DNA of 64,000 nt. Origin: Dehalococcoidia bacterium (GTDB lineage Bacteria > Chloroflexota > Dehalococcoidia > Lucifugimonadales > GCA-002694895). A program made the position numbers and the translations under genes. The stretch lies in the NCBI GenBank assembly GCA_029936815.1, contig JAPYRX010000007.1, forward strand, positions 3,129 to 67,128, read 5' to 3'. The notes below the pieces were generated by a model. The model worked only from the letters and a program-made list of their open reading frames with translations, was not told where the DNA came from and did no database searches. Of this stretch, positions 5,226 to 38,687 are shown piece by piece. Within the stretch, counting starts at the first letter, position 1; each line of letters opens with the position of its first letter.

Positions 5226-5487
5226 TATTTACTTTAAATTTAATTATTAAGAACTCATAAATATTTGTAAAGTTTTTATATATTTTCTATGCACTGTAAT
5301 ATATTCAATCAAAACAACTAAGACAGTACTAGATTGAATATGATTATTTCTCAATAATAGTATTAAATATCAATATAAAACTTTCATTATTGAAAACACA
5401 ATTATTTTCAATATTAATTAAATAAATCTTTATAAACATAATATATAGTAAAATTGTAAAGAAATTATTAAATATATGTAAATACAA

Positions 5488-13207: not shown

Positions 13208-14146
13208 TTGATCGAATTAAAAAATATAACTAAATACTACGGTAACTTCCCAGCTGTTACTGATATTTCTTTTAAAATTAACAGAGGGGAAATTGTAGGA
13301 CTTCTTGGCCCTAACGGCGCTGGAAAATCAACTACTATGAAAATGATTACTGGATTTATGCCTCCTACATCTGGAGAACTAACCATAGATGGTTACGATA
13401 TCGTACACGAATCTATTGAAGCTAGAAAAAAAATTGGCTATTTACCTGAAACTGTCCCCCTATATACTGATATGACTGTCTATTCATATATTGAGTATAT
13501 GGGTAAATTAAGAGGATTAAATAATAAAAATATAAAATCTAAAGCTGACAATGTCATAGAAATATGCAAATTAGGTGATTATAAAAACAGTTTAATTTCA
13601 AAACTGTCGAAAGGATTTAGGCAAAGAGTAGGTATTGCACAAGCAATAATACATGAGCCCGAAGTTTTAATATTAGACGAACCTACAATTGGTATAGACC
13701 CAAATCAGGTAGTGGAAACAAGACAATTAATCAGAAATTTATCAGGAGAACATACTCTTGTATTGAGTAGTCACATACTTCCTGAAGTGAGCAGTATTTG
13801 TGAAAGAGTGCTAATCATTAATGAAGGAGAAATCGCAGCTTCTGACACCATTAAAAATTTAAGCTCTTTAGTTTCTGGAAAATCTAAAATGGAAGTAGAT
13901 ATAATCGGATCTCCTCAATCAATAAAAACAAAACTTGAAAAAATCGAAGGTGTTAGATCTATAGATTTATGGGTTAAAAAATCATCGAACGAATATACGA
14001 CTTTTTCAATAGAATCAGATATTTCAGTAGATATAAGAGCTGAAGTTTCAAAAACTATTATAGAAAACAAATGGGGACTTTTGAGACTTGAATCAATGGG
14101 AATGTCACTGGAAGATATTTTCTTGAAAATCACTACATCAGAGTAA
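13208..14146 (+). CDS. ABC transporter ATP-binding protein (GldA-like)
   Basis: Walker A GPNGAGKST, signature LSKGFRQR, Walker B LILDEPT. Confidence 0.9.
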   Translation: MIELKNITKYYGNFPAVTDISFKINRGEIVGLLGPNGAGKSTTMKMITGFMPPTSGELTIDGYDIVHESIEARKKIGYLPETVPLYTDMTVYSYIEYMGKLRGLNNKNIKSKADNVIEICKLGDYKNSLISKLSKGFRQRVGIAQAIIHEPEVLILDEPTIGIDPNQVVETRQLIRNLSGEHTLVLSSHILPEVSSICERVLIINEGEIAASDTIKNLSSLVSGKSKMEVDIIGSPQSIKTKLEKIEGVRSIDLWVKKSSNEYTTFSIESDISVDIRAEVSKTIIENKWGLLRLESMGMSLEDIFLKITTSE

Positions 14147-14167
14147 AACACTACGCAAGGAAACAAC

Positions 14168-14893
14168 ATGAGAAACATATTTCTAATAACTTTTAAAGAA
14201 ACAAAAACATATTTCTTAAGCCCTATGGCTTATATAGTGGGAGGACTATTTTTAGGATTAACATGGTTTTTTTTCAACACTAGTATAGTACCAGGTGACC
14301 TTAATCCTATAACAGAGGCCAATGTAAGAGGATATCTTGATCCAACCACTCTACTATTTATTATCTTTTCTCCATTAATTACTATGCGATTGTTCTCAGA
14401 AGAAGAAAAACTAGGGACTCTCGAATTATTATTTACATCACCAGTTAAAGATATCGAAATAGTGATAGGTAAATATTTAGCTTCTGCAATAATTCTGATA
14501 TCAATAGTATTATGCACTCTTTTCTATGTAATATTAATATACTTATTTAGTTCTCCTGATTTAGGTCCTTTATTAAGTGCTTACTTCGGAATAACACTAT
14601 ACGGCCTAGCTACTTTGAGCGTAGGTCTTTTTGCATCATCTTTGAGTGGAAATCAAATAGTTTCAGCTGTTGTTGGAACTGTGTTACTACTTCTATTGTC
14701 ATTTATAGATTCTTTAGGAGCAATGCTAGAAGGACTTCCAAGTACTATTTTTAATCAGATGGCTCTTAATTATCATTTTGAAGATTTTACGAAAGGAGTC
14801 ATTGATATGGGGAATATTGTCTATTATCTTTCTATTGCTATTCTATTTTTATTCTTTACAACTCTAAATTTACAAATTAGAAGGTGGAAATAA
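14168..14893 (+). CDS. ABC-2 type permease (GldF-like)
   Basis: 241 aa, six predicted TM segments, FSEEEKLGTLELLFTSPV motif. Follows the ATPase. Confidence 0.8.
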   Translation: MRNIFLITFKETKTYFLSPMAYIVGGLFLGLTWFFFNTSIVPGDLNPITEANVRGYLDPTTLLFIIFSPLITMRLFSEEEKLGTLELLFTSPVKDIEIVIGKYLASAIILISIVLCTLFYVILIYLFSSPDLGPLLSAYFGITLYGLATLSVGLFASSLSGNQIVSAVVGTVLLLLLSFIDSLGAMLEGLPSTIFNQMALNYHFEDFTKGVIDMGNIVYYLSIAILFLFFTTLNLQIRRWK

Positions 14894-14896
14894 TTT

Positions 14897-16594
14897 ATGA
14901 ATAACAAAATACTTCAATATATAAAACAAGAAATCCTTCCATATATAACTAATGTTAATTATTGGATTATTCTTCTAGGGTTCTCAGGAATTCTATCTAT
15001 TATTGCTGGAAGTTTAAGTTATTTCATAATTACTGAAATCCAAGATTTTGCTATTTCAATCATTATCACAGGGTTGATTCTTAGCTTATTTGCTTTGATA
15101 TTATCACCTAGATCTACAGCTTCTTTTTTCAAAGGAAGAAGAGGAAAATACGGAACAAATTCTGTTATTTTATTTCTTGCATTTTCAACAATTATCGTTT
15201 TAGCAAATTCTTTCTTTGTAATTAACTCTTATAGATTTGATACAACTGCAACAAGAGTATTTTCTCTTTCTAAGCAAACAAAAAAAATCTTATCTAGCTT
15301 AGATACTCCAGTCAGAGCCAATGCGTTTTTTGTTCCTACAAACACTAATCAAGAAAACTTAAATACTAATGCACAAGATTTATTGTCCGAATTTGCAAAG
15401 AATTCAAACAAATTCAGTTTCAGATTCAATGATCCGCAATTAAATAAAACATTAGCAATTAAATATGGAGTGATGCAATACCCAGCCATTGTATTTGAAG
15501 ATTTATCTAGTGGGAAACAACAACCTGTTTATGAAAAAGCTTTCAATCCTTTTAGTGAACAAGATTTTGTAACAGCTATGTTAATAGCAATGGGAGACAA
15601 GCAAAAAGTTATATATTATTCAAATGGGCACAAAGAAAAGAGTCTTTCCAGAGATGTTACGACTAATAATGTGACAGATGAAGGGATTGATTATTTCATA
15701 GAAGGCCTTAAAAGAGATAATTATAATGTGAAGTCAATAAATTTTGAGCAAGTTGAAAAAATACCTTCCAATGCAGCAGCTTTGATTATTATTGGCCCTA
15801 AATCATCATTACCTCCTAATCATGCTAAAATGATTGCAGATTACATAGCCCGAGGTGGAAGAATAGCGTTTCTTCTTGATCCCAATCCTCATGTAACTTG
15901 GAATGAGCTATTAATTAATTGGGGCGTAATTATTTCACAACAACCAATTGCTGACCCTTTAAGTTCTCTTGCAGGAAGCAAATTTTTAACTCCTTTGCTA
16001 CAAAAATCTAACAATCAATATGTACCTGAGCAAAAACTTCTTCAATACACAAGAAACAATACCGCCGAAACAAAAAGAATTTTATCAATAACTGATCAAA
16101 TTAATGCAGCTTTTTTCCCTGGAGCAGGAGCAATTATAGAAACTGTCGAAGAAGGATCAAGACCGTTTCATGTACAAAACATACAATTAGGAGTATCTAC
16201 AGCTATAAGCTGGTTAGAACCAAACATAGAAGATCCTAAATTTGATGAAAACACGGATATTCAAGGTCCTTTTTCTTTGGTTTCCATTATAGAATCTACA
16301 GGCCCTGTAACTTCAAACGGGCCAGTATTTGATTTAAGTAAAATCATGATATTCGGTGATTCTGATTTTGTAACTAATAAATGGTTTTATAGTAATCAAA
16401 ATAGCGACTTGATTTTAAATTCGATGGCTTGGTTAGCTGAAGATTATGAAGTTATTTCAATAAGACCCAAAATAGTACCCTTCAGATCTATTGTCGTAAA
16501 CAGAAGAGATAGAGAATTTCTTAAATGGAGTAGTGGGCTTCCATTTATTCTAATGCTATCAACAAGTACTATTGTATGGTGGAGAAGAAGATAA
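14897..16594 (+). CDS. GldG-like ABC transporter auxiliary protein (ABC_transp_aux-like)
   Basis: 565 aa with N- and C-terminal TM anchors and a large exported domain. Position and architecture match GldG family proteins. Confidence 0.65.
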   Translation: MNNKILQYIKQEILPYITNVNYWIILLGFSGILSIIAGSLSYFIITEIQDFAISIIITGLILSLFALILSPRSTASFFKGRRGKYGTNSVILFLAFSTIIVLANSFFVINSYRFDTTATRVFSLSKQTKKILSSLDTPVRANAFFVPTNTNQENLNTNAQDLLSEFAKNSNKFSFRFNDPQLNKTLAIKYGVMQYPAIVFEDLSSGKQQPVYEKAFNPFSEQDFVTAMLIAMGDKQKVIYYSNGHKEKSLSRDVTTNNVTDEGIDYFIEGLKRDNYNVKSINFEQVEKIPSNAAALIIIGPKSSLPPNHAKMIADYIARGGRIAFLLDPNPHVTWNELLINWGVIISQQPIADPLSSLAGSKFLTPLLQKSNNQYVPEQKLLQYTRNNTAETKRILSITDQINAAFFPGAGAIIETVEEGSRPFHVQNIQLGVSTAISWLEPNIEDPKFDENTDIQGPFSLVSIIESTGPVTSNGPVFDLSKIMIFGDSDFVTNKWFYSNQNSDLILNSMAWLAEDYEVISIRPKIVPFRSIVVNRRDREFLKWSSGLPFILMLSTSTIVWWRRR

Positions 16595-16627
16595 TCGTTC
16601 TTAATATATTTCTAACAGGACATAACT

Positions 16628-17710
16628 ATGAATTTTAAAATAACAATATTATTTATAATTCTAGCATTCTTAACAGGTGGAATTTTTTACTATTTCACTA
16701 CTAATGAAAGTGAAGATGTATCTATAGATCCTCCTTGGTTTTACCAAGTATCTATGGATGATATTAATTTCATAGAAGTTACTCGACAAGAAAAAACAGT
16801 AGGTTTCTACAAAAACGAAGATACAACGTGGTCTTTTGTTAACCCAAAAGGAATTCCTCCAAGTTATGAACGATGGGGTGGTGTAACTTTATTGCTAAGC
16901 GGCCCTCAGACTAAAAGATTATTAGTTGCTGACAAAATTGAAGACCCTGCAGAATATGGATTAGACAACCCAAATTTAATTATAAATTTTGATTTGATTG
17001 GGGGTAGGAATTTAACTCTCAAACTAGGTGGTGCAACATCTGATTTCAAACATTATTATTGCCAAATAAATGATTTCCCTGAACTATTTATCATTTCATC
17101 TATGTGGAATGATGTATTGGGTAATCTTGTAGATGAATTACCTTATCCAAAATGGTATATAAAAAGAGATCCAAAAGAAATGGTAGGAATAGCAATATAT
17201 AAAGGAGATATTCAATCTCAAGCAACTCCTGCCAGAAAATTTGAAACAAAAAATAACAAAGACTGGTACTTCATGGACTTATCTGATTTAGATGATAACG
17301 CTACTAACAATATGTTGAATCAAGCTCCAGGCACAGGTTATGCTGCATTTCTCAAAACGAGCGATAAAATAGAACTAGATACATCCGAGTGGAATAAAAA
17401 ACAATATTTAGTTGGAGGCCCTCAAAATATAACTGTTGTTAAATCATATGCAAGCGAACCTGAAGATTACAAAAAATATGGCATTGGAGATGCGAGTGAT
17501 GCTATTGAATTAAGATTTAATTCGTTTTCTCAAAAAGGTACTGAATTTATAGATGGTATTCTTCTTAAAATCGGAGATAAAACAGAAGATAACAAATCAT
17601 ATTATGCATATTCTGAAAATAATGAATTTATAAAACCTGTACTAGCATTAGATGCAAATTGGGTAGAAAGCGTAATGGATTTATATAGCAACCCTCCAAT
17701 AAAAAAATAA
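16628..17710 (+). CDS. DUF4340-like membrane-anchored protein
   Basis: 360 aa with a single N-terminal TM. Sits in the usual last position of GldAFG-like operons. Confidence 0.5.
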   Translation: MNFKITILFIILAFLTGGIFYYFTTNESEDVSIDPPWFYQVSMDDINFIEVTRQEKTVGFYKNEDTTWSFVNPKGIPPSYERWGGVTLLLSGPQTKRLLVADKIEDPAEYGLDNPNLIINFDLIGGRNLTLKLGGATSDFKHYYCQINDFPELFIISSMWNDVLGNLVDELPYPKWYIKRDPKEMVGIAIYKGDIQSQATPARKFETKNNKDWYFMDLSDLDDNATNNMLNQAPGTGYAAFLKTSDKIELDTSEWNKKQYLVGGPQNITVVKSYASEPEDYKKYGIGDASDAIELRFNSFSQKGTEFIDGILLKIGDKTEDNKSYYAYSENNEFIKPVLALDANWVESVMDLYSNPPIKK

Positions 17711-17711
17711 A

Positions 17712-20700
17712 TTACATAGTAAAATTTCTATACAAATCCAATAATCTTTCAGGCAAATCTCTTACATCATCTAATACTTCATAACCCATATCTTGAGTCA
17801 TGGCTTTTAAGTAATCATGTCCATTCTTGTCTACTGTAAGGCAAAATGCATTAATATCTTTATTCTTTGCTTCTGTTAAAGCCATTTTAGTATCATGTAC
17901 AGCATATTCTTTTTCTACCCCTTCTCTACTATATCCACGATCCTGAGGTCGGCCATCACTAATTAGAAACAATAATTTTGTTCTAGCCTGAACTTTATCT
18001 AATTTTGAGATAGCATGCCTTATCGCAGGCCCCATTCTGGTAGCATGTAGTGGTGAAATTTTATCTATTCTTGATTTTATGTTATCAGTCAAACTTTCCT
18101 CTAAATCTTTGACAGTATAAAATTCAACGTTTTCTCTTCCATATCCTGAGAAACAATATATACCATATTTATCTCCCAAGTTTTCTAAAGCATCCATAAT
18201 TAAAACTGAAGCTTCTTTTTCTACATCAATGATTCGTTTGTATGTTCTAACTATTCCAGATTTTCTCCTAGATTTCACCCATTTCATATAATCAACCGGG
18301 TCATCAGGTACATCCCAATCATTGTTTGAAGTTGAATCTTCAATAGATTCTGCTGTTGAAGCACTAACATCTAACAAAAAGACACAAGCAACATCTCTTT
18401 GTATTTTATTCCTTCTCCAATATAATTTTTCGCTTGGGCTCACTCCAGTTTTAATATCAACAAATGCTTCGATAACATCATCTATATCAAAGTCTTCTCC
18501 ATCCTCAAGACGGCGCTCTTTCTTTAACATTTCAGGAGATATCATTTCAAATTGTCTTCTTAAATGAGAAACAAGAGTACTATAATCAAGCAAAGTATCG
18601 TCATAATATTGCCTATCACCTTCTCCCATTGTTCTTTCTTTAACAATACACCATCTAGGTTTATAATCATTAGATCTGAAATCCCATTCATCATATACAT
18701 ATGATTGCGGATCATCAGTTTGCAATTCTTCAAATTCCTCAGAATCATTGTCTGTTTCACCAGGATTATGGTTTGAATTTTCACTTAATTCTGAACTTAT
18801 TTCTTTAAGAATATTTTCGGCTATCATATCAGTTGAAGAGTCTATTGGACGTTCGGTAGCATCTACATCTAAATTTTCCATTTGGTCTAAAAGTTCTTTT
18901 AACATTTCAGGACTGATATTTTCCTGCGAAAACTCATTGTTGTCACTATCCATTGATCTCATATTCTCTAAAAGTTGAACTAATTCAGGTTTGAAATCTC
19001 CTCTATAATCAACCTGTGCTGGGGATTGGTATTCTTCAGAATCACTATGCAAGTCCATAGAATCTTGATTCATCATAAATTGTAATATTTCTTGCATGAC
19101 ATTATCATCTTCGTAATAATCTTGTTCTTGTTCTTGTTCTAGGTTTAACTCTTCTGTATCTTCATTTGCCATGTTCTCATTTTGCATAGAGAATATCATT
19201 TTATATATTCTAATACTAATTTCAGCAGAATCATGAACTGTAGAATCTGGTTTATCAAAAATCATTTTCATTAAAGCGTATATATTTTTAAATTGATCAA
19301 TATATTTTTTAGGAACACGAGTTGAATCATTTTTCCCCAAACTAATTTGAACTAAAAATTCAACTAAAGCATCATGTGAATTTAGTGTATTTATATTTGG
19401 TCTTTTTTCTAAAGCTTGTGCTTTCACTCTGTCAAAATCCTTACTAAGTCCCATATATTTACTCTTTATACAATGTTCTACTCTTGTATCTTCTATAATT
19501 GCGAATATATCAGTAATTAATGTTCTGTTTTCAAACAAATCAAAAAATTTGTTGAAATCAGTTTTTGTAGATGTGTTTGATTCTTCTTTGTCTTTTAATG
19601 GGAAATGGATTTGGTCAGCATTTTTATGCTTTATCAAATAGTCTTCATACAATTTTGATCTCATGTCATCAAATAATATACTTGGTTCATTAAATATAAA
19701 TTTAAAGCTACCAAATTCTAGTCTGCCAACCTGGTGACTAGATATAACTTTAAACCATTTATAATTAGTATTCTTTTCATCAAATCTATTAATTATTTCA
19801 GGAACAAAAATAGATTTTCCTTCAGTTGTCGGATTCATAGTAGACGACCATCCTATGTTTTTATCCACCAAATCAGATGAAGGTAATATTTCGATATCAG
19901 TTCCGGCAAGTGCTGAACAATAAAGTTGTAACAATTCTTTAATAGATTCATATTCAACTGAAGAACTTATTTTATTCAAAGTATTCTCGCTCGTTAGTGA
20001 TTCCATTTTGAAATAAGCTATTGCAGCGTCAGGATTAATTTCTAATAACTCAATACCTTGGTCATACCATTCATCAATTTTTTTAATATCGATTTTATTT
20101 AAAATTTCGGGGATTTTTGATAAAAATCCAGAAATCACGCTAGGTTGTTTTCTAGATAAATCTTTGCACAATTCAAGTATTTTATCGTAATTTCTATTGT
20201 TAATTGTATTAAAAGGTAAGGACAGTTCATCCATGATAGATGTTGAGGAATGTCCGCCATGTTTAATTATAGATAAAACAAGATTCATCAACTCTAATCT
20301 TTGGTTTTCATTAAATTTAATTAAATGTTTAGGAGAATTTTCCAATATATTTTTAAGATCCCGGCTAGAATTATTTTTCAAACTAGTTAAAAGCTCTATC
20401 CCAGTAATTTTAGAATTAAATTTAGTTAGAAAATTATAACTATTATCTAAGCATTCAACAGCCATATCATACGATTGTTTTGTAATGTCATTCAATAAAT
20501 ATATAATTTGTTCAAATTCTGAAAATGTTAAAACTTTTAAAAATTTAGGCGAATGATCAAAGATTTTAGAAGCAAAGTTTCCTGATTTCCAACTTCCGTC
20601 ATAAATTTTTTCGGCTAATATAGCCATTGAATCAATGTGACGTCCTCTAGTAATTTCAAGAAAATCAGATGAATTTTTTATATAAGACGCAGCTAAAACA

Positions 20701-20963
20701 GGAGATAAAACTATTAGTCTGTTTATCATTTTTGACCATTGAATTAACTCAATCCCCTTCAAAAGTTCTGATAAAGATACTGAAACTTTTAACATATCAG
20801 TAGTTACTTCCCAAGATCTTACTCCAGAATCTGTTATAATTTTAATCTCATCATTCCATTCATTAATTTCTTCTTCATTAAAAAGATTTTTCAGTATCAA
20901 AATTGATGCGTTATATTCTGATTGTAAATTTTCAGGATATTTTTCAAAGATATTTTTATTCAT
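17712..20963 (-). CDS. CbbO/NorD-like protein with C-terminal von Willebrand factor A domain
   Basis: 1083 aa. The C-terminal VWA has a DxSxS MIDAS (VFLLDVSAST) followed by LISDGRPQD. Acidic low-complexity inserts are present. Encoded downstream of a CbbQ-type ATPase. Confidence 0.7.
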   Translation of the reverse strand: MNKNIFEKYPENLQSEYNASILILKNLFNEEEINEWNDEIKIITDSGVRSWEVTTDMLKVSVSLSELLKGIELIQWSKMINRLIVLSPVLAASYIKNSSDFLEITRGRHIDSMAILAEKIYDGSWKSGNFASKIFDHSPKFLKVLTFSEFEQIIYLLNDITKQSYDMAVECLDNSYNFLTKFNSKITGIELLTSLKNNSSRDLKNILENSPKHLIKFNENQRLELMNLVLSIIKHGGHSSTSIMDELSLPFNTINNRNYDKILELCKDLSRKQPSVISGFLSKIPEILNKIDIKKIDEWYDQGIELLEINPDAAIAYFKMESLTSENTLNKISSSVEYESIKELLQLYCSALAGTDIEILPSSDLVDKNIGWSSTMNPTTEGKSIFVPEIINRFDEKNTNYKWFKVISSHQVGRLEFGSFKFIFNEPSILFDDMRSKLYEDYLIKHKNADQIHFPLKDKEESNTSTKTDFNKFFDLFENRTLITDIFAIIEDTRVEHCIKSKYMGLSKDFDRVKAQALEKRPNINTLNSHDALVEFLVQISLGKNDSTRVPKKYIDQFKNIYALMKMIFDKPDSTVHDSAEISIRIYKMIFSMQNENMANEDTEELNLEQEQEQDYYEDDNVMQEILQFMMNQDSMDLHSDSEEYQSPAQVDYRGDFKPELVQLLENMRSMDSDNNEFSQENISPEMLKELLDQMENLDVDATERPIDSSTDMIAENILKEISSELSENSNHNPGETDNDSEEFEELQTDDPQSYVYDEWDFRSNDYKPRWCIVKERTMGEGDRQYYDDTLLDYSTLVSHLRRQFEMISPEMLKKERRLEDGEDFDIDDVIEAFVDIKTGVSPSEKLYWRRNKIQRDVACVFLLDVSASTAESIEDSTSNNDWDVPDDPVDYMKWVKSRRKSGIVRTYKRIIDVEKEASVLIMDALENLGDKYGIYCFSGYGRENVEFYTVKDLEESLTDNIKSRIDKISPLHATRMGPAIRHAISKLDKVQARTKLLFLISDGRPQDRGYSREGVEKEYAVHDTKMALTEAKNKDINAFCLTVDKNGHDYLKAMTQDMGYEVLDDVRDLPERLLDLYRNFTM

Positions 20964-20965
20964 AA

Positions 20966-21523
20966 TTATTTATTTAATATATTTAGCAAATTATTTATTA
21001 TTTTTGCAGTTGCACCAAAAATAATATTACCATCATAGTAAAAGGTTCTAAACTTTTTAAGACTTTTTTTAGTAATAATATAGTCATAGCGCCAATTAAT
21101 ATGATTATTTAATTCAGTCAAAGGTACATTTACAATTTTTGCAACTTCAGATGACAAATAGAATTCGGCATTCTTATCAATTATCCCAACATAAGGTTTT
21201 ATCAAAAATAAAGTTGAAGTTAAAACAGAATCCAAGTCTCCAATCAATTCAATATCTTTTCTTAGTACACCTATCTCTTCTTCAGTTTCTCTATAGGCAG
21301 TATCCAATAAATTATCGTCAATTTTTTCTTTGGTTCCACCTGTGAAGCCAATTTCTCCAGGGTGGTATTTCAAATGTTTACTTCTTATTTGTAATAATAG
21401 TGATATTTCATTTTTACTGATTAAGAATAAAACTATTACTGCAGCTATTTTGTGACTAATTTCAGCATTGACAGATTTGCTATTATAACTAGCAATCTTA
21501 GTCTTTATAGGATAAAAATCCAT
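20966..21523 (-). CDS. Nudix hydrolase, CoA pyrophosphatase-like
   Basis: LLLQIRSKHLKYHPGEIGFTGG matches the NUDT7/PCD1-type CoA motif with two substitutions. It is followed by the Nudix box AYRETEEEIGV. Confidence 0.7.
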   Translation of the reverse strand: MDFYPIKTKIASYNSKSVNAEISHKIAAVIVLFLISKNEISLLLQIRSKHLKYHPGEIGFTGGTKEKIDDNLLDTAYRETEEEIGVLRKDIELIGDLDSVLTSTLFLIKPYVGIIDKNAEFYLSSEVAKIVNVPLTELNNHINWRYDYIITKKSLKKFRTFYYDGNIIFGATAKIINNLLNILNK

Positions 21524-21528
21524 TTAGA

Positions 21529-22416
21529 TTATTCTGCGAAAATAGAAGATATTACTTCTTGTATTCCTTGATGTAATATTGGATCATCAGTTATTGCCCA
21601 ATTAACAGAAATCTGGCATGCTCTAATCGGTTTCACTCCCTGTGTGATCATTTTCGCAGCATATATCAATAACCTGGTAGATGCTCCTTCTGGTAACCCA
21701 TGGTCTTTCAAGTTTCTAATTTTCTCACCCAAAGTAGCTAATCTAAATGCCATATCTAAATCCAATTCCGATTCATGAGCAATAATTTCAGCTTCCTTTT
21801 CTACCGAAGGATAATCAAATTCAATCGCAACAAATCTTTGTCTGGTACTATGCTTTAAATCTTTCAATGCACTTTGGTAACCAGGATTATATGAAAGTAC
21901 TAGCAGAAATCCTTCTGCAGCTTCTATTAATTCACCTTTTTTTTCTACAGGTAATATCCTTCTGTGATCGGTTAATGGATGAATTATTACAGTAGTATCT
22001 TTCCTTGCTTCCACCACTTCATCTAAATAACAAATACCTCCTGCTTTAACAGCACGAGTTAAAGGTCCGTCCATCCATACAGTAGAATCGCCTTCTAATA
22101 AATATCGCCCTACGAGATCGCTAGCTGTAAGGTCTTCATGACACGCAATTGTTACCAATGGGATGTTTGGTTTTGATTCATCTGGATTCTTTTCACCTGT
22201 TAATTCCATTTCCTGACCCAATTTGTAAGCCATGTATTCAACAAATCTAGTTTTACCACAGCCAGTAGGCCCCTTGAATAAAATTGGAATTTTCTGCTTG
22301 TAAGCTGCTTCAAATAATTCTATTTCATCTCCAACAGGAACATAATAAGGTTTTTCTTTGGCGAAATATTCTTCGATAATATAACTTTTATATAAAGACT
22401 TGGTTGTATCAGACAT
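21529..22416 (-). CDS. CbbQ/NirQ/NorQ-type MoxR AAA+ ATPase
   Basis: [19 protein letters not shown], Walker A GPTGCGKT and Walker B ICYLDEV. Start placed at the ATG at 22416 (MSDTTK), preceded by AGGAAG. The ORF track starts 8 codons earlier. Confidence 0.85.
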
Positions 22417-22581
22417 TTTACTTCCTAATGAAATGATCATTTTAACTATTGATATGTCATTATAAATATCTAATCTGTAAATATCTACTAGTGAATTAAT
22501 TATTTAATATACTTAAATAAATTATAGGATTATATTATTTCTGTTAGAATATATTTCTAGCTTTTTTAAACCTACAATATT

Positions 22582-23562
22582 ATGGATAATCTAAAACAAG
22601 AACAAAATAATAATAATAAACCAAAAATATTAGTAGATAATGTAACGAAAGTTTTTGGTTCAAGGATTGCAGTCAATAAAATAAGTTTTTCTATTAACAA
22701 AGGAGAAGTCATAGGTTTTCTTGGTCCCAATGGAGCTGGGAAAAGCACAACTATGAGATTATTAACTTCGTATTATACTCAAAATTCTGGCGATATATTT
22801 ATAGATTCCATTAATACCAAAGACTCCGATATAGAAACTAGAAAAAAAATAGGCTATCTTCCTGAAAGTAATCCTCTTTATGGAGAAATGCTTGTTAAAG
22901 ATTATTTGAAACTAATTGGTGATTTGAGAGATTTAAGTAAATCTGATTACAATAACAATCTTTCTAATGCTATAGATGAAACAGGGATACATGAATATTA
23001 TTATAGCCCTATCAACCAACTTTCCAAGGGTTATAGGCAAAGAGTAGGATTAGCGCAAGCTATTCTACATCAACCTGAAATTCTAATACTAGATGAACCA
23101 ACTGAAGGATTAGATCCAAATCAAAGAGTATCAATGAGGAATTTGATAAAATCATTAGGGGAGCAGCGAACAATAATGCTTTCAACTCATGTATTGCAAG
23201 AAGTAGAAACAACTTGTTCTAGAATTATACTCATTAACAAAGGTAAATTAATTGCAGAAGGAACAATTAATGATATTCTGCACACTCAAAATAAAAACCA
23301 AAATATAGAACTTGAAATCATAGGCGATAATATTCAATCAAAATTAAATTCTATAGATGGAATTAAAGACATTAAAATTATAGAAAATAATGAATCTAAA
23401 AAACTGAATATATTTCTAGAAGATGGATTTGACCCTAGAAGAGATATATTTGAAAAAGCAGTAAAAGAAAATTGGATCATATTAAATATGAATAAAACAT
23501 CTCCAAAACTTGAAGATGTATTTAAATTTTTGACAATTGGAGAAGGCAACTCAGAATTATGA
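22582..23562 (+). CDS. ABC transporter ATP-binding protein (GldA-like), paralogue of 13208..14146
   Basis: Walker A GPNGAGKST, signature LSKGYRQR, Walker B LILDEPT. Confidence 0.9.
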   Translation: MDNLKQEQNNNNKPKILVDNVTKVFGSRIAVNKISFSINKGEVIGFLGPNGAGKSTTMRLLTSYYTQNSGDIFIDSINTKDSDIETRKKIGYLPESNPLYGEMLVKDYLKLIGDLRDLSKSDYNNNLSNAIDETGIHEYYYSPINQLSKGYRQRVGLAQAILHQPEILILDEPTEGLDPNQRVSMRNLIKSLGEQRTIMLSTHVLQEVETTCSRIILINKGKLIAEGTINDILHTQNKNQNIELEIIGDNIQSKLNSIDGIKDIKIIENNESKKLNIFLEDGFDPRRDIFEKAVKENWIILNMNKTSPKLEDVFKFLTIGEGNSEL

Positions 23563-25799
23563 AACAACTGTTAACAATATTAAAAAAAGATCTAAGGTCA
23601 TATTTTGATCAACCTACTGGTTATATATTAAATATAATTTTTGTAGTAGCTATCGCATTTCTTTATTTCAGAACAATAGATACTACTAACGAAGCCTCAC
23701 TAAGACCAATGTTTTCTCTCTTGCCTTGGATTTTATCTATTTATATACCTGCAGTTTCTATGCGTCTTTTTTCTGAAGAACAAAGAGATGGAACTCTTGA
23801 AATTTTATTCACACAACCTGTTAGAGGAACAACAGTAATATTAGCAAAATTTTTTGCAGGACTTTTATTCATAACAATTGGCATATTAGGAACTTTGCTA
23901 ATCCCAATATCCCTTAGTTTTGCAGGCAATTTAGATTACGGAGCCCTCTTTGCTCAATATATTGGAGCTATCCTATTAGCATCTTCTTTGGTAAGCATTG
24001 GATTATTTTCTTCCAGCCTAACCAAAAACCAAATAGTTGCATTTATTATTTCTTTAACTATAAGTATGCTTCTTTTAGTCTTAGGTTTGGATTTTATAAA
24101 TATTACATTACCCTCATCTTTATCAATTTTACTTCAAGATTTAAGTCCTCTAACTCATTTTTCTTCTATTACAAGAGGATTGATTGACCTAAGAGATTTA
24201 CTTTATTTCATATCTATTGATATTGCTTTTTTGAGTTTGACATACCTTAATACAAAAGGTAAAAGCCTAAATAGTGACTCTCCTCAATACAGAAATCTAA
24301 GAGTTGGCGTTGGAAGCCTTGTTATTTTAAGCTTACTTTTTGCTTGGTTTGGAAGTTCAATCCAAGGAAGAATAGATCTCACAGAAGACAAAGTGTATTC
24401 TTTAGCTCCTTCAACTAAAAATATATTTGACAACCTCGATGATTACGTAACAATAACTTTATATGAATCAAAAGATCCCCCAATTAATACAGCATTAACA
24501 GCAAGGGATGTAAACGATTTTCTTTCCGATCTCGATGCCAGATCTGAATATATAAAAGTAAAACATAGATATCCGGATGTAGATGAAAAAGACAAAGAAG
24601 AATCTGAATTTGCTGGAATCCCCCCGGTTCAATTTAACATTCAGAGGCAAGGAGAATTTCAGGTTAAAACTGGTTATTTGGGCATGACAATCGCATATGC
24701 TAATAACAAAGAAGTTGTGCCATATATTGAATCTTTAGATGGACTGGAGTATAAGATATCTTCTTTAACTTTTAAGATGTTAAATAACACAAAAAAAACA
24801 ATAGCTTTTATTGATATTCCATCTTCTAAAACAAATGCAAGTATGGGGTCGTTCATTTCATTATTGTCACAACAATATGACATATCTGTTATTAATATTA
24901 ATGAAATGAATAATATTAAAGATACACCTGATGTTTTTATTATGGCAGGTGGAAATTATGAAAATGTAAACATGGATTCAATTTTTACGGAGAATAAAAT
25001 ACATGATTTAATCCTTCAGGGAGTAAGTTTTTTTGTTCTTGTAGATACTGTTAATATTGATAAAAATAGAATGAGTGCTTATCACAATGAATTTAGCGGG
25101 GCACGCATATGGGAAAAATTTGGCATCATAATAAAAAATAACATGTTATATGACCTTGTATCATATGAAACATTGCCATTTGGCACGCAATCTGGTGAAG
25201 TATTATTACCCTACCCTTATTGGATCAGGACTCCTCCTAATGATTCAAAAGTGACTGGTAAAGTGAATTCTACTCTGTTTCCTTGGGTAAGCTCAATAGA
25301 ACTAATAAAACCATTAATTAATAATATTAAAACTGATCCGATAATCATTACATCACCAACCACTTCTATACAATATGACTATCAAGATTTGAGCCCGAAT
25401 GCAAAATTTAATCCTAACAGTGATAATACAGGATCTCAGGTATTAGGAGTTAAAATTGAAAGCAATGAAATCAATCCTGAAGTAACTATAAGATCAATAA
25501 TTGTTTCTGATTCTGAATGGTTAACTGATAATATTGCTGGAAGAAATCAGTCTAATTACGCACTTGGTATGAATATGGTCGATTGGTTAGCTCAAGAAAA
25601 TCAATTAGCAGATATCAGATCAAAAGTAATAAGAGAAAGAACATTAGACTGGTCATCAAAAGGCTCGTTTTTCAGTCATCAATCTTTAACAAAAAATTTA
25701 AATTATGTAACTACTCCAATCATTTTGATAATATTTGGATTTGCAAGATATACAAATAGAAAATCTATTCAAAATAAAGTATTTAAAAATGAAAAATAA
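23559..25799 (+). CDS. Fused ABC-2 permease / GldG-like auxiliary protein
   Basis: 746 aa. The N-terminal ~235 aa align by eye with the permease 14168..14893 (FSEEQRDGTLEILFTQPV). The remainder is a GldG-like exported domain with a C-terminal TM. ATGA overlap with the ATPase gene. Confidence 0.7.
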   Translation: MKQLLTILKKDLRSYFDQPTGYILNIIFVVAIAFLYFRTIDTTNEASLRPMFSLLPWILSIYIPAVSMRLFSEEQRDGTLEILFTQPVRGTTVILAKFFAGLLFITIGILGTLLIPISLSFAGNLDYGALFAQYIGAILLASSLVSIGLFSSSLTKNQIVAFIISLTISMLLLVLGLDFINITLPSSLSILLQDLSPLTHFSSITRGLIDLRDLLYFISIDIAFLSLTYLNTKGKSLNSDSPQYRNLRVGVGSLVILSLLFAWFGSSIQGRIDLTEDKVYSLAPSTKNIFDNLDDYVTITLYESKDPPINTALTARDVNDFLSDLDARSEYIKVKHRYPDVDEKDKEESEFAGIPPVQFNIQRQGEFQVKTGYLGMTIAYANNKEVVPYIESLDGLEYKISSLTFKMLNNTKKTIAFIDIPSSKTNASMGSFISLLSQQYDISVININEMNNIKDTPDVFIMAGGNYENVNMDSIFTENKIHDLILQGVSFFVLVDTVNIDKNRMSAYHNEFSGARIWEKFGIIIKNNMLYDLVSYETLPFGTQSGEVLLPYPYWIRTPPNDSKVTGKVNSTLFPWVSSIELIKPLINNIKTDPIIITSPTTSIQYDYQDLSPNAKFNPNSDNTGSQVLGVKIESNEINPEVTIRSIIVSDSEWLTDNIAGRNQSNYALGMNMVDWLAQENQLADIRSKVIRERTLDWSSKGSFFSHQSLTKNLNYVTTPIILIIFGFARYTNRKSIQNKVFKNEK

Positions 25800-26712
25800 A
25801 CCAACATTAATATTATTTTCAATATTTATATTCATCAGTATATTTTTTGCTGGGATTAAAATTTTACTATCTAATACTAATCAAATATATGATGAAACTG
25901 GAATAATTTTTATAGACCCGACTATTATAAATAGCGTTCAGATTAGCAATGAACAAAACACATCAAGTTTATATAAAAGAAATGACTCTTGGAGAATTGG
26001 TAAACAAACTGTATTTGAACCTAAATTATCGCTTTTTTGGAAAGCTATAGCCAATATACAAAAATCAGAATTAATGTCTATAAATCCTAAAAATTTCGAA
26101 AGAATGGGATTTGATGATTCAAATAAAATTTTAGTAAGATTTTTTATCGAGTCAACTTTGCAAGAAGAATTTCTAGTTGGTAAATGGGATCAAGACACTA
26201 AAACATGTTTTGTTAAAAAAATTAATATTGATGAAATTTACGGGTTCACTTGTCCTTATGAAAATATATTTGCCACAGATCCTAATCTGTGGAGAAATCC
26301 AATAATATTAAATTTTCCACCTCAGAATATTCAATCAATAACATTTTCGTATCCGGACAAAGAATTTGAAATCAACCTTTCTGATCAAGGATGGATTCTA
26401 AATGAAAATCCTGATCTCATATTAGACTCTAACAAAGTAGGACAGTATGCTAATCAAACTCAATTGCTTCTTGCTGATGGATTTTTGACAGACGAAGAGT
26501 CAAAAGAAGTTGATTTCAATCAATCTGATGCTTTATTCACTTTTATTCCAAAACCTAAAACATCATCTACAATTACTAGAATCAGATTAAAACAAATAGA
26601 TTCAAATAGAGTAGCAATTAAAAACGGGAACTCTCCGATTATATATTATCTAAATATTGGTAATGCAATGGAGTTATTAGTAAATGAAGAAAAATTTTTA
26701 CCAAGTGATTAA
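25789..26712 (+). CDS. DUF4340-like membrane-anchored protein
   Basis: Start placed at the ATG at 25789 (MKNKPTLILFSIFIF, TM anchor), an 11-nt overlap with the upstream gene. Same operon position as 16628..17710. Confidence 0.5.
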   Translation: MKNKPTLILFSIFIFISIFFAGIKILLSNTNQIYDETGIIFIDPTIINSVQISNEQNTSSLYKRNDSWRIGKQTVFEPKLSLFWKAIANIQKSELMSINPKNFERMGFDDSNKILVRFFIESTLQEEFLVGKWDQDTKTCFVKKINIDEIYGFTCPYENIFATDPNLWRNPIILNFPPQNIQSITFSYPDKEFEINLSDQGWILNENPDLILDSNKVGQYANQTQLLLADGFLTDEESKEVDFNQSDALFTFIPKPKTSSTITRIRLKQIDSNRVAIKNGNSPIIYYLNIGNAMELLVNEEKFLPSD

Positions 26713-30369: not shown

Positions 30370-31519
30370 CTACTCAAACATTTCCCAACTAAATTTTCTC
30401 TTCTTGCCATTGAGTAAAACCCCTAAATATGTAGATCTAACTAAGTATTTATAACTTATATATGAAATTAATGTGGTTAATAAAATTGATAGCATTAATT
30501 TTAATTCAATTGAAAAATTAAATTTGAACATAAAAAAAGTAATAAAAGTAACTATCGAAAAATGAATTAGGTATATCCAATATGCACTATCTGCAAAGAT
30601 TCTGAATATTTTAGTAAAACTAATTAATTTGCATTCAAATAGACCTATAAAAAATAAGGAAAAAAACACAGAACAAAAATTATATTAAAATATATGGAAT
30701 CCAATAAACAGGGTGACTTTCAAAATCAAGTTTAATAATTTCTAAATTAATTAAAGTGTATAGTACAAAGAAAAAAATACTTGTAAGAGAATAATATTTC
30801 CAAGTCCTGACTATATTTTGTAGATTACGATTATTAAATATCTGATAGCCAAACATAAAATACATTCCTGAAAGAACAGGGTCAATATTAAACCAGGTCC
30901 TGTTTCTCCTAAACTGAAAATTGAAATAACAAAAATGAAAGGAATAGGGATTTTAGAATAAAATACAAATTTCAAGAAATAATGATTTATTTTAGAAAGT
31001 AGATTTATTAATTTATTAAGTTTAAAAAATATTAATAATTTACTAATAATTAAAAAATACAATTTTAGGATAGCTGAAAAAACAAGAAATATTAGTAAAT
31101 GCCAAAGAAACCATAAGTGATAAGGTATCCTTCAAAAGAATAAAAGAATTCTAATTTTTGAGTATATCCAAATTTCACGATCCAAGGAACAGTTGTCATC
31201 ATTAGCAGGCTAAAAATAATCAAAGGTAATAATATTCTTAAAATTCTATTTTCCCACCAATAAGTCAAACCGTTACGCGATATTAATAAATGAGAAAAAA
31301 ACCCAGATAAAATGAAAAAACAGGTATTCTCCATAATTGAATAAATTGAACTATTATAGATGTAATTTCTGAATCTGATTTGTCAGAAGGTCAATCCGGA
31401 ATATCCATGTTAACATAAGGTAATGCTGCATGCAGAACTATACCTAGTAGCATAGCAATTGCTCTCAATGCATCTAATCCATAAAATCTTTTATCGTTGT
31501 TAGCCCCAAGTTTGTTTAT
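30370..31519 (-). pseudogene. Multiply disrupted acyltransferase family 3 membrane protein gene
   Basis: Five pieces in different frames (end coordinates mod 3 = 1, 2, 0, 1, 0). In-frame TGA at 31391..31393. A one-T deficit in a T6 run breaks LWRIPVFFILSGFF. No canonical start codon before the conserved N-terminus (RFYGLDALRAIAMLLG). The C-terminal piece has SAYWIYLIH. Confidence 0.6.
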
Positions 31520-31596: not shown

Positions 31597-32274
31597 TCAT
31601 TCCTTTTGAACAGAACGTAAATATGAGACTAGTGCCCATCTTTCTTGTTCTGTTAATATCGAATCGTAAGGAAGCATCCCTGATTTAATTTCTAAACCTT
31701 GTTCGTATTGAGCAAGACCAGTTCTAGATCCTTTAGATATAAATGCAAAAAGCTCTCCATCCGAAGAGTTCGAAGTTTTTTCTGAAAGTAAATTGGCAGG
31801 ATACGCGCCTTTATTAATTACTTTACCTTCAACAGTTTTTATATTCACATAGTCTCGATATGCTCCATTCCCATCTAAATTAGAGCCATGACAAAATATA
31901 CAATTTTCGGCGTATAATTTATTACCAAGAGTTAATTGATTATCAACATCATAATTAACAGGTATTTGTAAAGCTTTATATTCCATTGTATTTCTAGTAA
32001 GCTCTTTACCGTTCATAGGAACAGCTTCAGAATGAGGCATTATTCGAGGAATTTCTTGGCTTTTATAGGATGGTTGGTAATGCATTTCAGTAAAAATCAA
32101 AATAGCATGGCTACCTGATCCGGGGATTGCAGGCAAATGAATTGTAGCTGTCTCACCTAAAATTTTAACTTCACCAGTTTTTATATTTGCTGTACATGAA
32201 ACTAACACTAATACTATAGCAAATGATAAAAATAAACTGATTTGTTTTATTAATATTTTGTTCAACATCATCAC
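31597..32274 (-). CDS. actE: Alternative complex III monohaem cytochrome c lipoprotein subunit ActE
   Basis: Lipobox LVSC and a single CIFCH haem motif. Last gene of the ACIII cluster. Confidence 0.75.
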   Translation of the reverse strand: MMMLNKILIKQISLFLSFAIVLVLVSCTANIKTGEVKILGETATIHLPAIPGSGSHAILIFTEMHYQPSYKSQEIPRIMPHSEAVPMNGKELTRNTMEYKALQIPVNYDVDNQLTLGNKLYAENCIFCHGSNLDGNGAYRDYVNIKTVEGKVINKGAYPANLLSEKTSNSSDGELFAFISKGSRTGLAQYEQGLEIKSGMLPYDSILTEQERWALVSYLRSVQKE

Positions 32275-32279
32275 TCTTT

Positions 32280-32843: not shown

Positions 32844-32846
32844 TGT

Positions 32847-34241: not shown

Positions 34242-34256
34242 TTATATAAACTCCAT

Positions 34257-35666: not shown

Positions 35667-35672
35667 TTTTCT

Positions 35673-36407: not shown

Positions 36408-36422
36408 TTTAATTATCTCCTA

Positions 36423-38675: not shown

Positions 38676-38687
38676 AATTTATTAATC

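Follow-up and report, generated by a model that had tools for sequence, protein, structure and literature searches.

The described pairs of a MoxR-type AAA+ ATPase (Q) and a VWA protein (O or D) serve in metal insertion or in the release of a sugar phosphate, and to our knowledge none of them acts on CoA. NorQ-NorD is the chaperone for FeB insertion into cNOR (PDB 9qh4-9qhg; PMC13036017, PMC9976466), and the GRxLL/IxxxxT motif of the helix-2 insert touches the finger of the adaptor (PMC13036017). CbbQ-CbbO is a Rubisco activase (PDB 5c3c, 6l1q; PMC5437159), and the precedent of an activase with an inhibitor phosphatase is cited in the same paper (PMC5437159). CoaE of M. tuberculosis relies on a fused UPF0157 domain to fold and is regulated via its oligomeric state (PMC2765170, PMC3123319).

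We analyzed a 64,000-nt stretch of DNA (the window) of a marine Dehalococcoidia bacterium. ORF calling on the window confirmed three minus-strand ORFs, encoding a Q-type ATPase, a Nudix hydrolase and a VWA adaptor. The features of this triad were:

17712-18707, minus strand: adaptor residues 753-1083 and stop codon, with YDEWD segment, pore finger, VWA domain with MIDAS and C-terminal tail (NorD profile match)
18708-19136, minus strand: adaptor residues 610-752, predicted disordered acidic linker (composition, AF2)
19137-19961, minus strand: adaptor residues 335-609, family-specific alpha/beta "mid-domain" (alignments, AF2)
19962-20963, minus strand: adaptor residues 1-334, N-terminal helical-repeat (HEAT-like) extension (AF2 model)
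20966-21523, minus strand: CoA-pyrophosphatase-like Nudix hydrolase, 185 aa (Pfam NUDIX 3.7e-9)
21529-22416, minus strand: cbbQ/norQ-type MoxR AAA+ ATPase, 295 aa (Pfam AAA_5 and CbbQ_C)
22459-22487, minus strand: promoter-like site TAGATA-17-TATAAT just upstream of cbbQ (10/12, consensus match only)

The adaptor ORF as a whole spans 17712-20963 (1083 aa). The longest cbbQ ORF extends from 21529 to 22440, and the ATG at 22416, which yields the 295-aa product, is the probable start, supported by a Shine-Dalgarno sequence (AGGAAG) and by the family HMM beginning at this methionine. The tight packing described in an earlier note on this DNA was confirmed, with spacers of 5 nt between cbbQ and the Nudix gene (TAA-tctaa-ATG) and of 2 nt between the Nudix and VWA genes (TAA-tt-ATG). 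Every motif quoted there was recovered, including YRETEEEIGV, LLDVSAST and ELNLEQEQEQDYYEDD, and Pfam supported all three proposed domains (AAA_5/CbbQ_C, VWA and NUDIX). No internal terminator was found within the triad. Contigs from seawater metatranscriptomes covered each of the three genes, and the cbbQ-nudix junction was bridged by contigs of two runs. On the basis of the spacers, the absent internal terminator and these contigs the triad is one operon. The RNA contig depth falls off upstream of 22450; matches to the promoter consensus were not more common here than in shuffled sequence. A chance origin is not at issue, since the DNA of 30% GC holds an ORF of 1083 codons with full-length homologues at E = 0.

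The ATPase matched AAA_5 (1.5e-28) and CbbQ_C (1.2e-26) and carried Walker A (GPTGCGKT), Walker B (CYLDEV), the helix-2-insert motif and the P-loop cysteine. Its sequence matches in the PDB (5c3c, 6l1q, 9qh4 and 9qhd) ranged from 3e-99 to 2e-91. CsoCbbQ was the best-scoring solved relative (3e-99) and NorQ followed at about 1e-92, so that the CbbQ/NorQ type proposed before was borne out. By homology the ATPase is probably hexameric.

The adaptor is NorD-like and overlong, as had been suspected: it has 1083 aa compared to 638-646 aa for NorD and 759 aa for CbbO, and the extra length sits in the family-specific N-terminus. Its family profile matched residues 353-643 of NorD (9qhd_G) at E = 6e-50, and NorD VWA domains were the top Foldseek matches of the C-terminal part (7e-14). 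The Pfam VWA match (2e-7) covered residues 919-1060 only. The MIDAS residues D865, S867, S869, T975 and D1003, the first three within LLDVSAST (residues 863-870), were invariant in the family alignment, and the finger segment and the C-terminal tail were conserved likewise. The acidic stretch (D+E 29%, K+R 4%), previously described as a low-complexity insert, carries a conserved motif (VDYRGDFKPELVQLL) and is instead the counterpart of the essential disordered linker of NorD (residues 242-393). For the mid-domain (AF2 pTM 0.77; invariant residues including H410, Q411, E416, E491, D492 and R494 in the alignments) no sequence match and no fold match at E < 1 was found in the PDB, and it had 1284 representatives among 1.84 billion proteins. 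The helical-repeat part was modelled by AF2 as paired helices with a pLDDT of about 85-90, and it is absent or shortened in relatives of 700-870 aa.

The Nudix protein gave its best NCBIfam match with the CoA pyrophosphatase PRK10707 (1.1e-28), at 100 bits and below the equivalog cut-off of 134 bits. This was the best or only curated match for the window protein and nine orthologues, with scores of 92-108 bits, all below the same cut-off. The best solved relatives were NUDT7, 1nqz of D. radiodurans and AtNUDT11. Both LLxxKRS...GEISFPGG and the Nudix box were kept across 78 orthologues/loci. The CoA-pyrophosphatase type given in the earlier note therefore holds as CoA-diphosphatase-like, by curated and solved matches; since the scores stay below the equivalog cut-off, another nucleotide could be the substrate.

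Comparative analysis revealed that the Q-Nudix-VWA arrangement, usually preceded by coaE, recurs in about 100 related loci. The gene coaE encodes dephospho-CoA kinase and is the last one of CoA biosynthesis. The Nudix gene lay between the Q and VWA genes in 77 of 80 genome loci holding both, a set spanning 40-77% VWA identity and 30-71% GC; it is thus a conserved part of the cluster rather than an unrelated insertion. The complete order coaE-cbbQ-nudix-VWA was present in 71 of the 83 loci from genomes and in 20 of the 81 from metagenomes, and coaE lay immediately upstream in every Nudix-bearing locus with sufficient sequence, the only exception being the lineage of the window itself. There coaE was absent from the window and has been relocated away from the locus. 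Thirteen loci had coaE-Q-O without the Nudix gene, and in L099, L114 and L137 a Metallophos_2 phosphoesterase occupied the Nudix slot. A deeply divergent second clade of three loci had the order Q-O-coaE or O-coaE, with coaE directly downstream of the VWA gene; their VWA proteins shared 39-47% identity with each other and 29-35% with the Chloroflexota forms. The metagenome sample had been seeded with shorter non-Chloroflexota forms; in it, 30 of 56 Q-O pairs lacked the Nudix gene, and 17 loci had Q-O alone. Neither the Nudix gene, absent from these 30 pairs, nor coaE, absent from the window, is therefore obligatory at the locus. The divergence of the four genes was correlated, as expected of any vertically inherited genes, and synteny within one class can last without a functional link. 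The triad had been regarded as an orphan, which does not really hold: it has conserved partners in the Nudix gene and in coaE, the latter displaced in this lineage. The presence of coaE as a conserved partner strengthens the idea of a link to CoA. No description of this cluster was found in the searchable literature, in agreement with the earlier view that a Nudix gene between the ATPase and its VWA adaptor is undescribed.

The assignment of the triad to the NorQD/CbbQO type of machine, as a distinct uncharacterised subfamily, is well supported; the client and its chemistry we infer, and the cluster arrangement points to a client related to CoA. We tentatively favor a machine of the NorQD kind whose client is linked to CoA and whose Nudix partner destroys a CoA-type ligand, and consider this reading quite possible. 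One VWA adaptor should bind the ATPase ring as NorD binds NorQ. By homology, its finger would insert into the ring pore and meet the helix-2 inserts with their GRxLLxxxxT motif, the C-terminal tail would rest on the ring, and the MIDAS would remain available to bind an acidic residue of a client. The helical repeat and the mid-domain would form the client-binding region, replacing the N-terminal domains of NorD or CbbO. The client would be an enzyme or carrier holding a CoA-type ligand (3'-phospho-ADP plus pantetheine), which Q6-O1 would open by ATP-driven twisting. The Nudix enzyme may then cut this ligand, once released or exposed, into 3',5'-ADP and (acyl-)4'-phosphopantetheine, making the release irreversible, and CoA could be rebuilt by PPAT and CoaE.

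The neighbouring enzymes could be the clients themselves, with Q-O as a dedicated chaperone or regulator of CoaE, the CoA diphosphatase or both, acting on folding, oligomeric state or product release and hence on the CoA pool. The genes of described Q/O and Q/D pairs lie next to those of their clients, the only same-strand neighbours conserved here, in two gene orders, are coaE and the Nudix gene, and the M. tuberculosis enzyme is a precedent for a CoaE in need of folding help (PMC2765170, PMC3123319). However, the CoaE of the cluster loci is a canonical, single-domain small P-loop kinase of about 200 aa (Pfam E = 1e-49, P-loop intact), CoaE needs no helpers in most bacteria, neither gene adjoins many of the Q-O pairs in this family, and an adaptor of 1083 aa with a structured client-binding region of about 600 residues looks too large for clients of about 200 aa. 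We therefore regard this as unlikely. Equally doubtful is an ordinary metal- or cofactor-insertion chaperone, similar to NorQD and FeB, for a metalloenzyme encoded elsewhere, such as ACIII or another respiratory complex, with the Nudix gene and coaE as housekeeping passengers held by operon inertia. The ATPase and the C-terminal third of the adaptor are very close to NorQD and CbbQO, the 17 metagenome loci with Q-O alone would fit, L085 has cupredoxin and NosD-like genes downstream, and an ACIII cluster lies about 9 kb from the triad in the window. Against this, the Nudix gene keeps its place between Q and O, at spacings of a few nt, down to about 40% VWA identity and across 30-71% GC, the coaE linkage recurs in a distant clade with another gene order, and a different phosphoesterase fills the Nudix slot in some loci. 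No metalloenzyme gene was found to recur near the Q-O pair, and the genes separating the triad from ACIII are common only to the closest relatives, which speaks against ACIII, one of the clients proposed earlier.

The earlier statement that the 64 kb hold no known client was correct: none of the 52 ORFs of at least 120 aa in the window belonged to the RuBisCO, NOR or CODH families. The flanking ABC-2/GldG-like/DUF4340 envelope system, also named as a candidate, is a very unlikely client to be assembled or activated by Q-O. In the window the triad stands between two paralogous sets, and in about half of the Dehalococcoidia loci one set lies downstream of the VWA gene, no more than 8 kb away; yet its genes are always on the opposite strand, as convergent or divergent neighbours, frequently separated by cinA or several kb, and the set is absent beside coaE-Q-O and short-form loci. 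Its proximity, seen in one clade only, looks like clade-specific synteny. MoxR-VWA ternary conflict systems can carry nucleotide-targeting effectors including Nudix (PMC7159879), and the triad could be a conflict or defence system of this kind with a Nudix effector. This is extremely improbable, since PADLOC gave no match except a marginal AAA, across hundreds of genomes the cluster keeps a fixed chromosomal place amid housekeeping genes, co-diverging with them and with no variability, and the ATPase is of the CbbQ subtype, CbbQ and NorD going unmentioned in PMC7159879.

Compared with NorQ-NorD, the triad ATPase shares the GRxLLxxxxT motif and the P-loop cysteine with NorQ, and adaptor residues 753-1083 align with NorD 347-643 over the YxEWD segment, finger, MIDAS, VWA domain and C-terminal tail, with a long disordered linker ahead of the VWA domain in both. 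In contrast, the N-terminal approximately 750 residues have no sequence or fold similarity to NorD (about 640 aa), nor genes are absent here, and the operon partners are the Nudix gene and coaE. With CbbQ-CbbO the triad shares the C-terminal VWA/MIDAS domain and, by homology, the expected Q6O1 architecture, and CsoCbbQ is the best-scoring solved relative of its ATPase, whereas a RuBisCO gene is absent from the window. CbbO is shorter (759 aa), and no protein named CbbO was among the 40 returned by a mid-domain profile search; the comparison with the CbbO N-terminus covers length and protein names. The CoA diphosphatases (E. coli NudL/PRK10707, human NUDT7, D. radiodurans DR1184/1nqz and A. thaliana NUDT11) share the upstream motif LLxxxRS...G...F(P/T)GG and, for NUDT7, the Nudix-box spacing; the basic residue of their CoA motif is often replaced in the triad type, and unlike the triad Nudix none known so far is encoded within an AAA+/VWA operon. 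The helper of M. tuberculosis CoaE, in contrast to an AAA+/VWA pair, is a domain fused to the enzyme (PMC2765170). The release of a tightly bound ligand, proposed for the triad, is the functional theme of CbbQ-CbbO. As an analogy only, with other enzyme families and ligands, Rubisco activase with the CbbY/XuBP and CA1P phosphatases follows the same proposed logic, in which ATP-driven remodelling releases a dead-end ligand that a dedicated hydrolase then destroys.

The cluster occupies 17712-22416 on the minus strand of the window, which has a GC content of about 30% and carries the chromosomal housekeeping genes dnaE, groEL, valS, ilvD, secDF, def and cca. The earlier note had described three tightly packed genes, and all three ORFs as well as both spacers (5 nt and 2 nt) were found. 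The ORF calls were:

21529-22440, minus strand, cbbQ (ATPase, here referred to as Q), longest ORF
20966-21523, minus strand, nudix (Nudix hydrolase)
17712-20963, minus strand, VWA adaptor gene (here referred to as O)

The start of cbbQ is most likely the ATG at 22416, the coordinate already used in the earlier note, since a Shine-Dalgarno sequence (AGGAAG) lies ahead of it and this methionine is also the first position matched by the family HMM. The best promoter-like site on this strand, a match to the consensus only, was located at 22487-22459, and no terminator-like site was found on the coding strand inside the block. All three genes were covered by contigs of four seawater metatranscriptomes from relatives with 95-99% identity. 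Contigs from two runs bridged the cbbQ-nudix junction (21441-21840 and 21456-22390), and depth, which dropped upstream of 22450, was maximal over the 5' part of cbbQ. As these are assembler contigs and DNA carry-over is possible, transcription of the triad in seawater is supported but not proven. Near-identical DNA to 16600-23600 (98-100% of sampled words) was present in several hydrothermal-vent metagenomes (public runs).

By sequence, the ATPase of 295 aa belongs to the CbbQ/NorQ (CGN) subfamily of MoxR AAA+ ATPases, in line with the assignment made from the sequence alone. It matched Pfam AAA_5 (1.5e-28, 100 bits, gathering cut-off 22) and CbbQ_C (1.2e-26, 93 bits, gathering cut-off 20.6) and aligned over its full length to the structures of CsoCbbQ (5c3c, 3e-99), CbbQ (6l1q, 5e-95) and NorQ (9qh4, 3e-93; 9qhd, 2e-91). 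Walker A (GPTGCGKT) begins at residue 49 and Walker B (CYLDEV) at residue 129. The helix-2 insert at residue 103 fits the motif GRxLL/IxxxxT, by which NorQ grips the finger of NorD in cryo-EM structures of NorQD (PMC13036017). Two cysteines, one in the P-loop (residue 53, GPTGCGKT) and one at residue 92 (IACHED), are both kept; the equivalent pair of NorQ forms an inhibitory disulfide (PMC13036017). The pair may represent a redox or thiol-modification switch, which would be of interest in a CoA-thiol context.

The adaptor (1083 aa) matched only the VWA family in Pfam (residues 919-1060, 2e-7). A family profile built from 16 members matched NorD (9qhd_G) with E = 6e-50, limited to profile positions 754-1083. 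This match spans the YxEWD segment, the counterpart of the finger (403-448 in PdNorD; PMC13036017), the MIDAS-bearing VWA core and the extreme C-terminus; the profile aligns to NorD from 347/353 to 465/473 and then on to its last residues. The complete MIDAS (DxSxS...T...D) was invariant in 16/16 sequences (D865, S867, S869, T975, D1003). An AF2 model of the whole protein (mean pLDDT 70.8) was composed of four parts:

residues 10-320, confident helical repeat
residues about 340-610, alpha/beta domain (residues 335-609, here named mid-domain)
residues about 610-750, disordered stretch
C-terminal to the disordered stretch, finger and VWA

When this model was searched with Foldseek, VWA chains of NorD ranked first, followed by the MIDAS domain of MDN1, and most of the matches were to VWA domains. 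Together with the invariant MIDAS and the NorD profile match, this bears out the reading of the protein as a CbbO/NorD-like adaptor with a C-terminal VWA domain. The disordered stretch is acidic (D+E 29%, K+R 4%). Its position corresponds to that of the NorD linker, which is unresolved in structures but essential for function, so that we regard it as a linker and not, as initially described, as a set of acidic low-complexity inserts. Within it lies an invariant motif, VDYRGDFKPELVQLL (residues ~648-668, within 18708-19136), which is predicted to be helical and may be a docking element.

The N-terminal part differs from that of NorD. The first 750 residues had zero matches in Pfam and NCBIfam, and only a designed helical protein was matched among PDB sequence profiles. 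Modelled alone, the mid-domain of ~270 residues reached a pTM of 0.77; no PDB fold scored below E = 1 in Foldseek and no PDB sequence matched. When the mid-domain profile was run in a word-indexed search of proteins, the hits were all fragments without informative names, 0/40 being named CbbO. The N-terminal region of NorD gave neither a significant alignment to the full-length or mid-domain profile nor a fold match, and plasmid-encoded proteins annotated as NorD matched residues ~755-1082 only. The adaptor thus resembles NorD in VWA/MIDAS, YxEWD segment, finger and ring-docking tail but lacks the NorD-type N-terminal domain. We therefore describe it, from its sequence and model, as a putative NorD/CbbO-type protein in the VWA region with a family-specific N-terminus of solenoid and mid-domain. 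According to the literature the N-terminal domains of NorD and CbbO are mutually unrelated and determine specificity. If the N-terminus seen here, compared directly with NorD and by the names of database matches with CbbO, is of a third type, its client would accordingly be expected to be of a third kind as well.

The Nudix protein (185 aa) carried a NUDIX domain (Pfam, 3.7e-9), and its best NCBIfam model was the CoA pyrophosphatase PRK10707, which it matched over the full length (1.1e-28). The assignment as a CoA-type enzyme holds at the level of domain and top family match, whereas the score of 100 bits lies below the equivalog cut-off of 134. Nine orthologues from other loci reached 92-108 bits, with CoA pyrophosphatase as best or sole family match. 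The closest solved relatives are all CoA diphosphatases (NUDT7, 1nqz of D. radiodurans and NUDT11 of A. thaliana). The Nudix box GGTKEKIDDNLLDTAYRETEEEIGV contains the catalytic REx2EE with a spacing identical to that of NUDT7. The PROSITE motif upstream of the box in CoA-specific enzymes is LLTxR[SA]x3Rx3Gx3FPGG. The corresponding segment of the window protein, LLQIRSKHLKYHPGEIGFTGG, deviates from this pattern at two positions, where Q replaces T and T replaces P. The consensus of the orthologues is LLNKRSxxVEHHKGEISFPGG, the basic position often being E or D, and LLxxKRSxxVxxHKGEISFPGG is kept across them along with the REx2EExG box.

Loci and contigs carrying relatives of the triad were numbered L001-L168. 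Full-length adaptor homologues of 1060-1130 aa, labelled 'NorD' or 'VWA domain-containing' in their sources, were found in marine and groundwater MAGs of Chloroflexota/Dehalococcoidia. A scan with one genome per species yielded at least 526 related stretches, and the family is thus widespread in Dehalococcoidia, including SAR202-labelled marine genomes. The best 80 of these stretches, a sample tilted to close relatives, all belonged to Dehalococcoidia/Chloroflexota by record title, on which our taxon labels are based. Together with the window, L001 and L002 they form the 83 genome loci; a Methanolobus contig with a bare Q-VWA pair (L003) was counted apart. All ORFs were searched with family-built seeds and HMMs on crude longest-ORF calls with approximate gene starts. 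A second scan, of metagenomes, was seeded with shorter adaptor forms and gave 81 loci.

Gene orders at loci related to the triad (80 of the 83 genome loci are the best 80 of at least 526 stretches; coaE, dephospho-CoA kinase gene)
Genome loci, coaE-cbbQ-nudix-VWA: 71/83
Genome loci, cbbQ-nudix-VWA: 6/83 (3 ended by the contig edge; the other 3 are the window, L004 and L005)
Genome loci, coaE-cbbQ-VWA: 2/83
Metagenome loci, coaE-Q-Nudix-O: 20
Metagenome loci, coaE-Q-O: 11
Metagenome loci, Q-Nudix-O: 6 (five ended by the contig edge; one, L129, window-like)
Metagenome loci, Q-O: 17
Metagenome loci, Q-O-coaE: 2 (L089, L094)
Metagenome loci, O-coaE: 1 (L086, Nitrospinota MAG)
Metagenome loci, VWA only on short contigs: 23

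The placement of the Nudix gene between Q and O is recurrent among the homologues surveyed (71 plus 6 of the 83 genome loci, of which 80 are the top-ranking ones of at least 526 stretches). Canonical features are seen in the coaE products (Pfam CoaE 1e-49, P-loop IGLTGGIGtGKS). GC content of the genome loci ranged from 30 to 71%, and VWA identity to the window went down to about 40%. The pairwise identity matrices of the four proteins were correlated (r = 0.60-0.88), which fits a long co-inheritance. No coaE was detected in the 64 kb of the window by the seed and HMM search of all ORFs. A second, fused ABC-2/GldG-like system holds the upstream position in the window, L004, L005 and L129. The gene cinA (MoCF_biosynth and CinA; NMN deamidase/ADP-ribose pyrophosphatase family) was very often found downstream of the VWA gene in convergent orientation (L001-L083, L097-L165), in loci with and without a Nudix gene. 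A GNAT gene and a gene with an MJ0043_C domain often preceded coaE in loci titled as SAR202, Chloroflexota or Dehalococcoidia MAGs.

The family extends beyond these genomes. With the mid-domain profile 1284 representatives were found in a set of 1.84 billion proteins, and for 243 the E-value was <= 1e-30. Some are shorter forms (670-870 aa) without all or part of the helical repeat, and named examples came from Nitrospinota, Candidatus Abyssubacteria, Egibacteraceae and Dehalococcoidia. In the three loci with coaE downstream (L086, L089, L094) the VWA proteins shared 39-47% identity with each other and 29-35% with the Chloroflexota forms; from this low identity we conclude that a second, deep clade has retained the coaE linkage, with another gene order. 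A Metallophos_2 phosphoesterase was located between Q and O, in the slot of the Nudix gene, in L114 and L137, with a homologous clustering ORF in L099. A His_Phos_1 phosphatase follows O in L112, with homologous clustering ORFs in L103 and L114. These cases suggest that what the cluster needs is an activity, that of a phosphohydrolase, rather than the Nudix fold as such. A Nudix gene beside the Abyssubacteria pair was rejected as the same partner; it lies downstream of the pair, is MutT-like and is unrelated to the Nudix protein of the window.

In 54 loci lacking the Nudix gene, recurrent neighbours were sought without supervision, and no shared candidate client emerged. Besides the metallophosphoesterase and histidine-phosphatase cases, the neighbours reflected clade-level synteny (ETF, HdrD-like Fe-S protein, MBL-fold hydrolase, cyclophilin). 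In the cultured actinobacterium Miltoncostaea oceani SCSIO 61214, plasmid NZ_CP064358.1 (L168, 35210-38920) carries cbbQ, a hypothetical gene of 362 aa and a VWA gene of 548 aa. The latter two proteins jointly cover query residues 290-1082, so that the adaptor is present here in split form, unless a frameshift is responsible. The adjoining genes encode a thiolase, a DUF35 OB-fold protein, an AMP-binding (acyl-CoA-synthetase-like) protein, a KAS-like protein and an acetoacetate decarboxylase. This organism is a possible experimental handle.

In the window the triad is flanked by a paralogous pair of systems with ABC ATPase, ABC-2 permease, GldG-like protein (DUF7088 and ABC_transp_aux) and DUF4340 protein, both on the plus strand (13208-17710 and 22582-26712). 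In Dehalococcoidia, systems of the left-hand type often lie next to the VWA gene in convergent orientation. The copy on the right, in which permease and GldG-like protein are fused into one ORF of 746 aa, occupies the place of coaE in other genomes. Further away, at 31597-39284 on the minus strand, lies an alternative complex III (ACIII) cluster with genes for cytochrome c, ActD, NrfD-like ActC, a 469-aa ORF without a Pfam match, a 4Fe-4S protein, a molybdopterin-type subunit and a multihaem cytochrome; the Fe-S and molybdopterin-like parts of ActB appear as separate ORFs in this genome. Between this cluster and a DtxR-like regulator four consecutive short membrane-protein ORFs (99, 61, 83 and 80 aa; 30370-31334, minus strand) look like what we presume to be a broken gene, possibly of an acyltransferase-3-type membrane protein. 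At 4001-6000 the GC content falls to 22.6% over glycosyltransferase and polysaccharide-deacetylase genes, which may form a variable cell-surface island.

To our knowledge only few clients of MoxR-VWA pairs are established (RuBisCO, cNOR, CODH, methanol dehydrogenase and fumarate reductase/Complex I), and most pairs found in genomes are orphans. That RuBisCO and cNOR are missing near the triad was confirmed, as neither family was found in the 64-kb window; both were also absent from the annotated flanks of L001, L002 and L084-L087. Two candidates put forward earlier from the surroundings of the triad gained no support. As the 8-kb flanks of the compared loci are shorter than the distance from triad to ACIII in the window, the intervening NHL and ProDH genes were used instead, and these are common only to L004, L005 and L129; ACIII as client is thus not supported. 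The flanking ABC-2/GldG/DUF4340 systems, whose genes lie on the other strand and adjoin the triad in one clade only, are in our view quite improbable clients. A defence system, finally, is highly improbable and was rejected: PADLOC models gave a marginal AAA match (6e-4) and none for the Nudix or VWA protein, and the cluster sits in a fixed housekeeping context.

Two other explanations were considered. The Q-O pair could chaperone or regulate CoaE and/or the Nudix enzyme. Such a function would agree with the general finding that clients are encoded beside their Q-O pair, and the CoaE of M. tuberculosis, which depends on a helper, provides a precedent; however, the adaptor seems oversized for clients of about 200 aa, and we rate this as unlikely. 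Alternatively, the pair could be a generic metal-insertion chaperone, with Nudix and coaE as passenger genes, an explanation to which we likewise attach little weight. We rather favour the view that the cluster is functionally tied to the metabolism of CoA or nucleotide cofactors, which we consider fairly probable, although far from certain. The synteny shows a persistent link to two CoA-turnover enzymes, the Nudix gene being sometimes replaced by another phosphoesterase, and such defined and recurrent partner enzymes narrow the search for the client to CoA or nucleotide-cofactor chemistry.

Judged by its architecture, the triad very probably encodes a machine of the NorQD/CbbQO type. In the published model a Q hexamer binds one adaptor, whose VWA finger enters the pore and touches the H2 inserts while its C-terminus docks on the post-sensor-1 loop. 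MIDAS and N-terminal domain hold the client, which is opened as ATP-driven rotation stretches the linker. Every sequence-readable element of this model is present except the N-terminal client-binding part. Based on homology and synteny, the client would carry a CoA-type ligand that is exposed or released by the Q-O machine. The Nudix enzyme would then cleave this ligand, and PPAT and CoaE would rebuild CoA. We regard this scheme as a whole as plausible, though somewhat short of an even chance. A CoA link, if true, would mean that the finger-in-pore mechanism has a further, new use and that CoA maintenance has a layer not seen before; if false, a new type of N-terminal adaptor domain, without a PDB fold match, is still defined by the family.

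The kind of machine is already known; its new features are the N-terminus of the adaptor, the CoA-type hydrolase embedded in the operon and the linkage to coaE. Consistent with the view that a Nudix gene in a Q/O system had been undescribed, no such cluster, and no paper that connects Nudix, CoA pyrophosphatase or Dehalococcoidia to CbbQ, NorQ, NorD or MoxR-VWA, was found in the searched literature accessible without subscription. The proposed scheme follows the same pattern as Rubisco activases and their inhibitor phosphatases, in which the release of a ligand is followed by its hydrolysis. Taken further, and here we are speculating well beyond what we think likely, the cluster could be a 'CoA-enzyme activase' of Dehalococcoidia and some Nitrospinota-like lineages: an enzyme that depends on CoA or pantetheine would be freed of dead-end or damaged CoA-type ligands by the Q ring and the long NorD-like adaptor, the Nudix enzyme of the operon would degrade the ligand, and CoaE would replenish the pool. 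If true, this would be a third client class for Q/O-type machines and the cofactor-proofreading counterpart of Rubisco activase and CbbY.
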